From: Escherichia coli
Lineage (GTDB): Bacteria > Pseudomonadota > Gammaproteobacteria > Enterobacterales > Enterobacteriaceae
Direction: 5' to 3' (one strand)
Assembly (NCBI RefSeq): GCF_003334385.1
Contig: NZ_QOWN01000019.1
Length of the DNA: 64,000 nt
In this document: piece after piece, positions 1 to 62,011 of the stretch
Layout of the letters: every line of letters starts with the position of its first letter
Position numbering within the stretch: position 1 is the stretch's first letter
Position numbers and translations under genes: made by a program
The notes under the pieces: model-generated
Databases searched by the model: none
The model's input: only the letters and a program-made list of their open reading frames with translations
Told to the model about the DNA's origin: nothing

Positions 1-158
1 AGCAGGGGATTGACCGGATGGCCGGACGTCACTCCGCCGGGGCACACCGAACAGGCCACGCCGGTGGGGGCACCAATGCGCACCCCGGCTGAACCCTGAA
101 CAATGCTACCGCCATACTGCGTCATGTCGCCCTGACGCGCTGCCGGTTTTCCGCTCAT
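1..158 (-). CDS. rhsA: 5' end (about 52 codons) of an Rhs-family protein gene; continues beyond window start
   Basis: Minus-strand ATG at 156-158; translation MSGKPAARQGDMTQYGGSIVQGSAGVRIGAPTGVACSVCPGG... matches the Rhs N-terminus as I recall it. Confidence 0.8.
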   Translation of the reverse strand, partial: MSGKPAARQGDMTQYGGSIVQGSAGVRIGAPTGVACSVCPGGVTSGHPVNPL

Positions 159-385
159 TTCTCATCCTTGTTTTATCGGGTTATTTGTCTGCTGACAGGC
201 GAAACCCTACAGATTTATAAGAAAGCCTGAAGTGAGATATCCATCAGAGTGAAATAATTAGGAAAATATTTATATCACCATGATAAATATGTGATTTATT
301 TGGAAGTAACAAACCATCAACATTTTCTGCCCTTTTTCCCATCACCAGGCCATACTGATATTTTTCCTCGCACAAAGGACTCGGC

Positions 386-994
386 ATGAAACTCGTCGGT
401 AGCTACACCAGCCCGTTTGTACGCAAACTTTCTATTCTGTTGTTAGAAAAGGGCATAACTTTCGAATTTATTAATGAACTGCCCTATAACGCGGACAACG
501 GCGTGGCGCAATTTAACCCGTTAGGAAAAGTGCCGGTGCTGGTGACCGAAGAGGGCGAATGCTGGTTTGATTCGCCGATCATCGCTGAATATATTGAATT
601 AATGAATGTCGCTCCGGCGATGTTGCCGCGCGATCCGCTGGAGTCGTTGCGGGTGCGCAAAATTGAGGCACTGGCGGATGGCATTATGGATGCCGGGCTG
701 GTATCGGTGCGTGAACAGGCGCGTCCAGCGGCGCAGCAGTCTGAAGATGAATTGTTACGCCAGCGGGAGAAAATCAACCGCAGTCTGGATGTGCTGGAAG
801 GATATCTGGTCGATGGCACACTCAAAACCGATACGGTCAATCTGGCGACTATCGCCATTGCCTGTGCCGTCGGATATCTCAATTTCCGCCGCGTTGCGCC
901 AGGTTGGTGTGTCGACCGCCCACACTTAGTCAAACTGGTCGAAAACCTGTTTAGCCGCGAAAGTTTTGCTCGCACCGAACCGCCAAAGGCTTGA
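386..994 (+). CDS. yibF: glutathione S-transferase-like protein (202 aa)
   Basis: Track ORF 386..994; GST-like N-terminal thioredoxin-fold motif; position upstream of selA. Confidence 0.85.
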
Positions 995-9378: not shown

Positions 9379-10345
9379 TCTTCGCTTTCCGCCGCTTGTT
9401 CAGGCCGCAGTTGCTGCGACTGAGCAAGCTGGTGGCGAATTTCACGCAGCATTTCATCCAGCACATACTGGACCCGCCAGGGCTGGTATTCCCGTTTACG
9501 GAAGATAGCCACCAGATCCAGCCACCATTCATAGGGTTGCTGAAAGCAGGGCACCAGCGTGCCGTCTTGCAGGTCGCTCTGCACACTTTTGTCTGGCGCA
9601 AACACAATCCCCAGGTGATTTCGTGCCAGCTCCAGCGCAGATTGCGTGTTGTCGCAAACGTAATTTCCCTTCACGCGATAATCCCGCACCTCTTTACTCC
9701 CGGCGACGTTGAAGCGCCAGATATTCGCGTCGTCGATCATCATCGAGTCGATCAAAATACAGGAGTGATGTTCGAGTTCGTCAGGACGGCTAATGGGATG
9801 TTTCTCAAGATAGCGCTGGCTGGCATAAGCGGTTACGGCATATTGGGTAATAAAACTGGCAACCAGCGATTCATTGGTGGAGCGTAGCTGATTAAAACAT
9901 CACAATCATCAGGAAATTCGACGCCTTCATAAAAGGCATTACGCTCAAGATTGCAGGTTTTTAGCGATAAGGTGATATCACCGATATCTTTAATTTTATC
10001 GATTACATGTTTGGATAAATAGGTAATTATGCCGGTTGGGGCGTAGATGGTGACCCGACCACGTTTCTCATGTTTATAATCTGCAATAAAATTATTAAGT
10101 TGCTCGTTTCTGTCCAGCATGTCGTTGATGTACGGTAACAGCGCGGTGCCAAAAGGTGTGAGCATCAGCTGCCGGGTGGTTCGGTCAAAGACTTTTAAAC
10201 CCACTTTTGATTCAAAATCAGCAAGATATTTGCTGACGTTGGCCTGTGCGATGCCAAGTACAGTCGCGGCATGGCTGATATTTTCACTGGCAGCGATTAC
10301 CGAGATAATTTTTAACTCCCGGTACTTAAGTTGTAATTTTGTCAT
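9375..10345 (-). pseudogene. yiaU: LysR-family transcriptional regulator, apparently frameshifted (N-terminal 170-codon ORF 9833..10345 and C-terminal ORF ending 9375 are in different frames)
   Basis: HTH-containing ORF stops at TAA 9833-9835; remainder continues in the -1 frame, open from 9899 to stop 9375-9377. Confidence 0.7.
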
Positions 10346-17535: not shown

Positions 17536-18039
17536 TTAAGCTCCTTGCGGTGGCGACGTTAGAGAATTGCTACGCGTGATGAGTTGATATAAATGACGCA
17601 GTTCAAAGAATGCGATAACGAGGCTGGTGGGCAGACAAGCGGCATACATCAGGCCGATGGGTAAACCGAGGATCGGTGAATAATCGCTCCAGTCCTGAAT
17701 TGTTTTTAGCGTTGCGCCCCAGGCCAGTGCGCCACAAATAAATAAGATTAAGGAATGGGTAACCAGAGCGACTCGTCGCTGCCATGCGGGGGAGAGTTTC
17801 TCCACCAGAAAGGTGACCTGAACGTGGGCGTTATCCATAAAAGCTACAATCGCGCCAATAAACGTTAACCAGACAAATAAATAACGTGACAATTCATCAA
17901 CAGATAAAATGCTTGTCTGAAAACCATATCTTAAAATAATGTTTATAAATACAATACAGGAAAGTACGGCGAGATTAATCGCCAGTATTGCTTCGAGTAT
18001 TTTTTTTTCATAGCTATTCCTTGAGGCTATGTCTGTCAT
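17536..18039 (-). CDS. yiaM: TRAP transporter small permease (start position somewhat uncertain)
   Basis: DctQ-family; ATG at 18037-18039. Confidence 0.85.
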
Positions 18040-40043: not shown

Positions 40044-40277
40044 TCGCTAAATAATACAGCAACCTTTAATAATCTTCTGCTGAATAAAGATTATCTCATA
40101 TATTAATTTTATGAGATTTTTTTAGGATTATATCAAGGAGAAGAAACAAACTTATTAAGCTAGAATAGCCACGGGTGCTTGAGACTGTTTGTCTCAGGTA
40201 TTCACCGAAAGGCAGACAGAGAAAAGCCCCACCTGACTATAAATCAAAGTTTGTACTGACCCCAAAAAGTTGGACAG

Positions 40278-41117
40278 TTAAACACGAGGCATATAGGTCT
40301 GATTCCGATATTCAATTGGAGTCAGACCTTTTAATTTCAGGCTAATTCTTCTGCTGTTGTAGTATTCAATATATTCCGTAACAGCATCCTTCAGTTCGCT
40401 TATATTACTGAACTCATCAAGATAAAAACACTCCGACTTTAAGGTTCCAAAGAAACACTCCACCACAGCATTATCCAGACAATTGCCTTTTCTGGACATG
40501 CTTTGTTTAATACCATGTTCTTTAAGGATATTTTGATATCTTCTCATACGATACTGCCATCCCTGGTCAGAGTGCAGAACAGGATGCTCGTGATTGAATG
40601 CCTGATCGAGCATATTCTCAACCATGTTCATCACTGGTCTTTCCGAAAGGCTGTAAGAAATAACTTCGTTGTTGAAGAGATCTATTACTGGAGACAAATA
40701 CAGCTTGCGCCCATTGACTGCAAATTCAGTAACATCGGTAACCCACTTCTCGTTTGGCCGCGTAGCCTTGAAATCTCTTTGGAGAACATTAGGGGCGGTT
40801 TGCCCTACCTCTCCTCTGTAAGAGCGGTATCGCTTGACCTTAATCGCTGCTTTAAGTGAGAGGGTTCCCATCAGGCGCTGAACAGCTTTATGGTTAATCT
40901 GTTTCCCTTCTCGATGAAGAGACAGCGTTACCCTACGGTATCCGTATCGGCCTCTATTCTCGTGATAAATCTCACTAATACGCTTTTTAACGTCCGCATA
41001 CTTGTCAGGCTTGCTGAGAGCCTTTAGATGATAATAAAACGTACTGCGCGGTATCTCCGCAGCCCTGAGAAGCTCATCAAGAGGATAAAACTGCCTTAGC
41101 TCGTTGAGTACTTTCAC
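40278..41117 (-). CDS. insK: IS150 transposase OrfB (DDE integrase domain); native start may lie a few codons upstream / be reached by -1 frameshift from OrfA
   Basis: Track ORF 279 aa; rve-type catalytic domain. Confidence 0.88.
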
Positions 41118-41635
41118 TTTTTCGTGGGATGAGCTAAGGCTTTCAGCTTTTTTAGATACATAAGCCGCGTTTCAAGAAATCGAACTTGCCTTTCAAGATC
41201 CTCAATGCGTCGGTCTTTTGACAGCTCCAATGCTGATGCCGCTTTTTCTGGATCAACTGATATTGCAATGTTTCTTTTGGTGCCAATCTTGAGCGCGCGT
41301 AAACCAGCTTCTCCGCGCTCTTCATAGACCTTCAGCCACCTGGCTACAGAACCACTACCAGCAAGCATAAAGTGAGCAGCAGCCTGATTAAGGGACATGT
41401 GCTGCTCGATCACAGCTTTCACGACCTTAATACGCAACTCTGGATCAGCACTAACGCCTTTAGGTTTGGGAATTAAACCTTTTTCTCCATGTTTTTCATA
41501 GAGGGCAACCCATGTCCTGACCTGGGTTCGGGGGACACCAAAACGTGCCGAGATGATCCTGTAACCATCATCAGTTGTGAAGTAGTGATTCACGACTTCA
41601 AGGCGCTTTTCAAAAGGGTATTTTGGCTTTGACAT
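41114..41635 (-). CDS. insJ: IS150 transposase OrfA (HTH), 173 aa
   Basis: Track ORF; A-rich slippery-like stretch near its 3' end. Confidence 0.88.
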   Translation of the reverse strand: MSKPKYPFEKRLEVVNHYFTTDDGYRIISARFGVPRTQVRTWVALYEKHGEKGLIPKPKGVSADPELRIKVVKAVIEQHMSLNQAAAHFMLAGSGSVARWLKVYEERGEAGLRALKIGTKRNIAISVDPEKAASALELSKDRRIEDLERQVRFLETRLMYLKKLKALAHPTKK

Positions 41636-41714
41636 ATTAGGGGCTATTCCATTTCATCGTCCAACAAAATGGGTGCAGTACATACTCGTTGGAAATCAAC
41701 ACAGGAGGCTGGGA

Positions 41715-41867: not shown

Positions 41868-42000
41868 GAGTCTTCGGCGGGAAATTATTCCCGCCTTACT
41901 TACGGCGTTGCGCATTCTCATTGCACCCAAATTTATTCTTCACAAAAATAATAATAGATTTTATTACGCGATCGATTATTTATTTCCTGAAAACAAATAA

Positions 42001-42030
42001 AAAAATCCCCGCCAAATGGCAGGGATCTTA
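42001..42030 (-). terminator. rho-independent terminator of cspA
   Basis: Minus-strand hairpin (atccctgcc/ggcggggat, one mismatch) followed by TTTTTT. Confidence 0.7.
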
Positions 42031-42053
42031 GATTCTGTGCTTTTAAGCAGAGA

Positions 42054-42266
42054 TTACAGGCTGGTTACGTTACCAGCTGCCGGGCCTTTAGCGCCGCTTT
42101 CGATGGTGAAGGACACTTTCTGACCTTCGTCCAGAGATTTGTAACCATCGTTCTGGATAGCAGAGAAGTGTACGAACACATCTTTAGAGCCATCGTCAGG
42201 AGTGATGAAGCCGAAGCCTTTGTCAGCGTTGAACCATTTTACGATACCAGTCATTTTACCGGACAT
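42054..42266 (-). CDS. cspA: major cold-shock protein CspA (70 aa)
   Basis: [21 protein letters not shown]... RNP1/RNP2 motifs. Confidence 0.97.
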
Positions 42267-42408
42267 AGTGTATTACCTTTAATAATTAAGTGTGCCTTTC
42301 GGCGATATGGCGTGCTTTACAGATTTTGAAGCGTTAAAGGAATGTGCACTACGAGGGGTATCAACGATAACTCTTGAAGGGACTTGCCTTACTACACTGC
42401 TTTAATGG

Positions 42409-42462
42409 TCTGTACGTCAAACCGTTGATGTGCATTAAGCCACGCATTGGCGGGTGATGCAA
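42409..42462 (-). promoter_or_regulatory. cspA promoter (-35 TTGCAT, 17-bp spacer, -10 CTTAAT) and cold-box at start of the long 5' UTR
   Basis: Minus-strand TTGCAT (42457-42462) and CTTAAT (42434-42439); cold box TGACGTACAGA (42409-42419); AT-rich UP-like region upstream. Confidence 0.8.
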
Positions 42463-53622: not shown

Positions 53623-53699
<77 letters not shown>

Positions 53700-53706
53700 A
53701 ATTCGA

Positions 53707-53735
53707 AAAGCCTGCTCAACGAGCAGGCTTTTTTG
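53707..53735 (+). terminator. rho-independent terminator of proK
   Basis: Perfect 11-bp stem aaagcctgctc / gagcaggcttt, loop aacg, T-run. Confidence 0.9.
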
Positions 53736-53789
53736 CATCTGCAGCTCATGAGGATGAGAACCTCCGGGGGCAGGGAGGTTCGACTCGAC

Positions 53790-53875
53790 GTAGGCCTGAT
53801 AAGACGCGTCAGCGTCGCATCAGGCAAATGTGCCGGCCATTGTCGGATGCGGCGCGACCGCCTTATTCGACCTAC
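53790..53875. repeat. REP/BIME cluster upstream of dppA
   Basis: gtaggcctgataagacgcgtcagcgtcgcatcaggc ... gccggccattgtcggatgcggcgcgaccgccttattcgacctac. Confidence 0.75.
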
Positions 53876-61942: not shown

Positions 61943-62011
61943 GAGAGAAAACCCCCGCACGTTGCAGGTATGCACCTGACAACACCACGGGGGCTAATCT
62001 TGACTCTAGAC
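61943..62011 (-). ncRNA. rdlD: Rdl antisense RNA (antitoxin of ldrD), about 66 nt
   Basis: Minus-strand sequence gtctagagtcaagattagcccccgtggtgttgtcaggtgcatacctgcaacgtgcgggggttttctctc with terminal GC-rich hairpin plus U-run, as I recall Rdl RNAs; ends approximate. Confidence 0.65.

Follow-up and report, generated by a model that had tools for sequence, protein, structure and literature searches.

The left edge of the window, by which is meant the whole 64,000-nucleotide stretch of Escherichia coli DNA analysed here (contig NZ_QOWN01000019.1 of assembly GCF_003334385.1), cuts through an Rhs gene that is transcribed leftward, out of the window, and that stands divergent from the rightward gene yibF. 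It is very probable that the Rhs polymorphic toxin RhsA has its first 52 residues encoded in bases 1-158, and that bases 1-348 form the right-hand end of the strain-variable RhsA element lying between yibH and yibF. The features on which this account is built are the following, in order of position.

1-158, minus strand: codons 1-52 of rhsA plus 2 nt, an Rhs core open reading frame that leaves the window at the left edge.
15-20, minus strand: codons for H47 and P48, between which N-terminal autoproteolysis is predicted and where the N-terminal plug of the cage starts, placed by alignment with Tse5-Shell.
72-155, minus strand: a single PAAR-like repeat, residues 2-29, with a literal P-A-A-R at residues 5-8, recognised by alignment to the last repeat of PAAR proteins.
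159-348, no strand assigned: right-hand end of the RhsA element, rich in AT (34.7% GC) and holding the 5' untranslated and promoter region of rhsA, delimited by a break in homology at 349 and by empty-site alignment.
165-169, minus strand: AAGGA of Shine-Dalgarno type, lying 6 nt upstream of the rhsA ATG, from reading of the sequence.
349-385, plus strand: core-genome sequence just upstream of yibF, found in genomes with and without the element by homology and empty-site alignment.
386-994, plus strand: yibF (glutathione S-transferase), an open reading frame of 202 amino acids annotated as yibF in all matched genomes.

The frame assigned to rhsA opens with the ATG at 158-156 on the minus strand and continues without a stop to base 1, giving 52 codons and 2 nt with the translation MSGKPAARQGDMTQYGGSIVQGSAGVRIGAPTGVACSVCPGGVTSGHPVNPL. 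An in-frame stop is located two codons upstream of this ATG, and there is therefore no N-terminal extension of RhsA. The open frame alone proves nothing, because 23% of the 52-codon frames in the window are stop-free, and it is homology that is decisive. The 52-residue peptide matches positions 1-52 of the NCBIfam model NF041261 (RHS_core) with E = 8.2e-28 and carries the conserved N-terminus of the Rhs core as that model defines it, the whole-protein cut-off of 2000 bits being out of reach for a fragment of 52 residues. Over bases 1-1000 the window is 100% identical to E. coli K-12 MG1655, whose annotation calls the gene RhsA, and the rhsA start is matched with 100% identity in many other genomes as well, many of them of phylogroup A, under the annotation rhsA or RHS element core protein. 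A frame left open by chance, or the start of some gene other than Rhs, is an explanation that the frequency of stop-free frames might have favoured, but it is refuted by the profile match and by the thousands of genomes in which an annotated rhsA is completely identical. The first 50 nt of the window occur once in it, against an expectation of 0 by chance. The divergent genes rhsA and yibF are separated by a spacer of 227 bp, and yibF, the conserved flanking gene, shows that the Rhs copy at hand is the one of the rhsA locus. An earlier note on this DNA had proposed a minus-strand Rhs gene start at the window edge, divergent from yibF, and both the RHS_core match and the identity to K-12 rhsA bear this out.

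The base composition changes abruptly at the gene start, from 66.5% GC in 1-158 to 34.7% GC in 159-348. A GC-rich Rhs core with AT-rich flanks is the classic Rhs contrast (Jackson et al., 2009; PMC2935791), and here it goes along with a chromosomal site that is fixed but occupied in only some strains. Presence and absence were counted in 5,426 complete E. coli genomes. A match to yibF is found in all of them (5,426/5,426), and the Rhs start lies beside yibF in 3,741 (69%); in the other 31% homology begins at window position 349 (344 or 386 in a few), and the genomes without Rhs at yibF have no further copy of this Rhs start. The end of yibH and the start of yibF are only 70 bp apart in UPEC129 and RM9872-C1, both of which are without the element. 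Alignment of the UPEC129 empty site with K-12 and with the window sets the right boundary at 348|349 and the left boundary 1 bp past the yibH stop, and in K-12 an element of 8,249 bp stands in place of 32 bp of the empty site. The 190-bp stretch 159-348 is complete in 3,740 genomes, which practically equals the 3,741 with the yibF-Rhs junction, and part of it recurs in many genomes at a second place, which is taken to be upstream of another Rhs copy. Loss of homology at 349, together with the empty-site alignment, means therefore that window 1-348 is accessory, beyond 1-158 alone. The earlier description of the left flank as an accessory region thus stands as to its nature, the Rhs start being present in part of the species and the remaining genomes showing an empty yibH-yibF site, and is amended as to its extent, the boundary falling at 348 instead of 158. 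Among the 11 positions at which Jackson et al. (2009; PMC2935791) catalogue Rhs in E. coli, the interval from yibF to yibH is 'position 10'.

Within the untranslated part of the element, a promoter and terminator scan of bases 1-500 returned no sites, a simple scan found no sigma-70 consensus, and no rhsA promoter is placed; an Rfam search of bases 1-420 at permissive thresholds gave only a match at chance level (E = 0.99). A separate observation concerns the neighbourhood. Both Rhs-less genomes examined carry a Fic family gene between yiaY and aldB (12448-13743 in L004 and 12446-13741 in L005), and its absence from the window and from K-12 marks a second strain-variable site a few kb away.

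The toxin tip and the immunity gene do lie beyond the window, as the earlier note supposed, since the frame leaves the window after codon 52. The same note held that nothing can be said about them from the window, which is too strict a view, for the 52 codons hold essentially the whole N-terminal PAAR-like module of the protein and close relatives show its likeliest continuation. Residues 2-29 align only with the last repeat of PAAR proteins (positions 68-94 of 94 in NF033420, E = 0.003), and the structures matched are likewise those of PAAR repeats (PDB 9rce_c residues 71-98, 4jiv_D 67-93 and 4jiw_D 67-92). A complete PAAR domain (PF05488 or NF033420; ~90-100 residues in three repeats) is not present in RhsA, which has one repeat scoring 17.6 bits against a cut-off of 124 bits; a longer N-terminus that might supply the others is excluded because of the upstream stop. 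A Pfam search of RhsA likewise gave no PAAR domain, the first Pfam domain being DUF6531 at residues 46-123.

It is at the start of that domain that the comparison with the Tse5 toxin of Pseudomonas aeruginosa becomes informative. In an alignment with the Tse5-Shell chain 8cp6_B (PVNPMLGSKLLP; PVNPMLGSKLLPEEVDFALAAP), the RhsA segment P48-VNPLLGAKVLP (PVNPLLGAKVLPGETDIALPGP) begins opposite residue 1 (E = 6e-18), and the arrangement typical of Tse5, in which the DUF6531 plug begins with a conserved PVNPxLG motif after ~47 residues, is found in RhsA. Tse5 is cleaved between K47 and P48 (PMC10684867). Read in this way, the 52 codons comprise essentially the whole pre-cage N-terminal module, made up of the PAAR-like repeat and a Cys-rich linker to H47, followed by five residues of the plug. 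The equivalence of the N-terminal fragments of Tse5 and RhsA is drawn from the shell alignment and the published residue numbers, and cleavage of RhsA at H47|P48, as well as loading onto the spike in E. coli, is accordingly a prediction. The point is a modest one, that the visible codons probably make up a complete N-terminal delivery module, up to the site equivalent to K47|P48 of Tse5. A protein search with RhsA residues 1-145 adds little, the best 120 of 557 matches being enterobacterial or without a name and mostly fragments at contig ends.

What continues to the left of base 1 can be approached through relatives. The rhsA gene of K-12 MG1655 is 4,134 bp long, and its product scores 2647 bits against RHS_core, compared with the curated cut-off of 2000. 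The protein has ~13 matches to RHS_repeat together with YD_repeat_2x, the Rhs-associated core TIGR03696 at 1170-1247, a DPLGL motif, and a tip recognised as Ntox34 (E = 3e-43). In K-12, rhsA is followed in order by yibA (which encodes a HEAT-repeat protein), an orphan fragment of Rhs, yibG, a further fragment, an Imm57 pseudogene and finally yibH. This layout, with a 4,134-bp rhsA, an Ntox34 tip, yibA, orphan fragments, yibG and the Imm57 pseudogene, recurs in LR-33 and VG48B2, two of the three genomes that best match the window's first 25 kb. The third, CP8-3_Sichuan (L003, positions 888-2969), which is the top-listed of the three, has an in-frame deletion of 2,052 nt (684 codons) in rhsA, from ~nt 198 to nt 2248. 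This deletion starts 40 nt past the window edge, is flanked by short CTG microhomologies, and fuses the N-terminal module straight onto the back portion of the cage; the gene is annotated as a pseudogene, and the Ntox34 end and yibA are kept. The exact deletion is unique among the 5,426 genomes, and 23 genomes match any junction of that type. It was considered as the common state of the locus and is ruled out as such, being confined to one genome.

The CP8-3_Sichuan gene nevertheless raises the question of whether the source strain of the window carries a mere Rhs remnant, in which only the 5' end is left, broken off by an internal deletion, a frameshift or an IS insertion, and no functional toxin is made. 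Besides this deletion and the pseudogene annotation that goes with it, ~20 other genomes have other short-range internal Rhs deletions, IS1 sits in the tip region of one genome (H121), and several private small indels occur elsewhere in the window, all of which would fit such a reading. Set against the 3,741 genomes with the junction, however, the 23 with a deletion-type junction are few, and only one of them has the exact deletion, while no mutation is seen in the 158 nt of rhsA that the window shows, so that a remnant is judged highly improbable.

Somewhat more weight, although still little, is given to a gene whose start is intact and whose tip is other than that of K-12, through C-terminal displacement or exchange with rhsB or rhsC, with yibA left as an orphan immunity gene or absent. 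The K-12 tip and yibA occur together in only 1,757 genomes, compared with the 3,741 that have Rhs at yibF, which is fewer than half, and in ~1,300 further genomes yibA is found with another tip upstream. These ~1,300 match only yibA and the last few bases of the toxin region, without the K-12 tip; the junction genes are variously annotated as rhsB, DUF8616-containing and so on; and exchange among positions 9, 10 and 5 is documented (PMC2935791). A different tip is nonetheless unlikely in this strain, as Ntox34 and yibA are found in LR-33 and VG48B2, both of the relatives checked that have an intact gene, and in K-12, and even CP8-3_Sichuan retains the Ntox34 end and yibA. The tip of the source strain is thus most plausibly Ntox34, as in its closest relatives, a conclusion that is reached by inference because the K-12 tip is present in fewer than half of the Rhs-bearing genomes and a deletion affects the gene in the best 25-kb match. 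Over its whole length the window is 99.9% identical to MG1655, with ~18 SNPs and several private indels, so there could be differences in the part of the element that is not visible. The start of the gene, the boundary of the element, its presence or absence among strains and the architecture in relatives are, by comparison, matters of direct observation.

With an Ntox34-tipped RhsA as the preferred reading, a working architecture can be proposed. The PAAR-like module at the N-terminus would attach the protein to the VgrG spike of a type VI secretion system; the N-terminal fragment would be cut just before the conserved PVNP motif and yet remain anchored to the cage, as in Tse5; the DUF6531 plug and the YD-repeat cage would enclose the toxin; and a C-terminal DPxGL aspartyl-protease plug would free the variable C-terminal toxin. 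The producer would be protected by an immunity protein from the next gene, and in the closest relatives it is the yibA product that would neutralise Ntox34. That RhsA's C-terminal region blocks recovery from stationary phase and that yibA neutralises it is attributed to Vlazny and Hill (1995) in the work that cites them (PMC3150448). Linkage to type VI secretion or vgrG genes is not seen at the locus, and the K-12 annotation of the window stretch and of the RhsA element lists no type VI gene. K-12 is not known to have a type VI secretion system, and delivery may therefore not occur in such strains. Whether RhsA is ever delivered where type VI secretion is lacking has long been asked of E. coli Rhs proteins, and the window adds nothing to it. 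One speculative answer, to which we attach a low probability, is that RhsA with its one-repeat PAAR-like module might act independently of type VI secretion, either in an internal control of stationary-phase recovery resembling a toxin/antitoxin system or in a role at the cell envelope; it is suggested because the start, at 100% identity, and the whole 4.1-kb open reading frame are intact in many genomes, including K-12. Internal toxin/antitoxin-like control of stationary-phase recovery has been reported for Salmonella Rhs orphans (PMC7043789), and control of this kind by RhsA itself is hinted at by Vlazny and Hill (1995).

Several other features of the window were recorded along the way. Private small indels relative to K-12 are located at 9873, 18000-18001, 26022 and 40593, the first two being absent also from the best 25-kb matches, and they may be real mutations, assembly errors or edits. 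With 4 bp deleted after 9873, the LysR-type gene yiaU is broken in two, leaving an open reading frame (9833-10345) of only 170 amino acids, and the TT insertion at 18000-18001 falls in a T-run at the start of yiaM. A 12-bp deletion after 26022 takes out the 3' arm and the T-run of a hairpin downstream of bax; it is found in no complete E. coli genome searched, the best full-length match being 93%. The deletion after 40593, also of 12 bp, is in frame and inside the IS150 transposase. This IS150 stands beside the hokA/sok type I toxin-antitoxin locus (~40170-41700, with sok RNA at 40173-40312), and the IS150/hokA junction is common to 1,618 complete genomes, which indicates an old insertion that is not specific to K-12. 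At ~53680-53800 one copy of ~168 bp is missing from the repeat that follows tRNA-Pro (proK), where MG1655 annotates the RtT sRNA; Rfam places a tRNA at 53623-53696 and naRNA4 at 53793-53872, and did not find RtT. Rfam matches at gathering level at 61946-62011 and 41999-42426, to the rdlD antitoxin RNA of the ldrD locus and to the cspA thermoregulator 5' UTR, are as expected for the region.

It is clear that an rhsA start at yibF is correctly identified here, and equally that it is already known and ordinary, rhsA being a textbook E. coli locus described since 1984. The practical value of the result is in annotation, where window 1-348 should be treated as accessory DNA. The rhsA gene is also a likely break point in assemblies and a site of recA-dependent rearrangement, because its start is common to two or more paralogues per genome.

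The parallels with characterised proteins are instructive in their differences as well as in their likenesses. Residues 1-47 (5 kDa) form the N-terminal fragment of Tse5, on which loading onto the VgrG spike depends. It is described as PAAR-like and as required for secretion, its last 18 residues being anchored in the cage by the DUF6531 plug (PMC10684867; PMC9637101). As in Tse5 (PA2684, PDB 8cp6), 47 residues are followed in RhsA by a PVNPxLG motif that opens the DUF6531 plug, and in both proteins the N-terminal fragment is short and without transmembrane segments. The literal P-A-A-R at residues 5-8 sets RhsA apart, the N-terminal fragment of Tse5 being reported to be without such a motif (PMC9637101), and Tse5 has Lys immediately ahead of its cleavage site, whereas His takes that place at the predicted site in E. 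coli RhsA, as in P. protegens RhsA (PMC10684867). The tips are unlike, Tse5 being a pore-forming toxin and K-12 RhsA ending in Ntox34. VgrG-dependent type VI export and N-terminal autoproteolysis are established for Tse5 (PMC10684867), and for E. coli RhsA they are predicted by homology. Stand-alone PAAR proteins, such as those of V. cholerae (4JIV) and E. coli c1882 (4JIW), offer a second comparison: their third repeat, GKPAARxGDxxxxGGxxxxGsxxVxIG, resembles RhsA residues 2-29, but they have three repeats where RhsA has one. The closest counterpart is the RhsA element of K-12 (rhsA-yibA-yibJ-yibG, from yibF to yibH), described by Hill and co-workers and placed at 'position 10' and in clade I by Jackson et al. 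(2009). The visible part of the element does not differ from that of K-12, with which it shares the flanking gene, the orientation, the spacer and the contrast in GC content.
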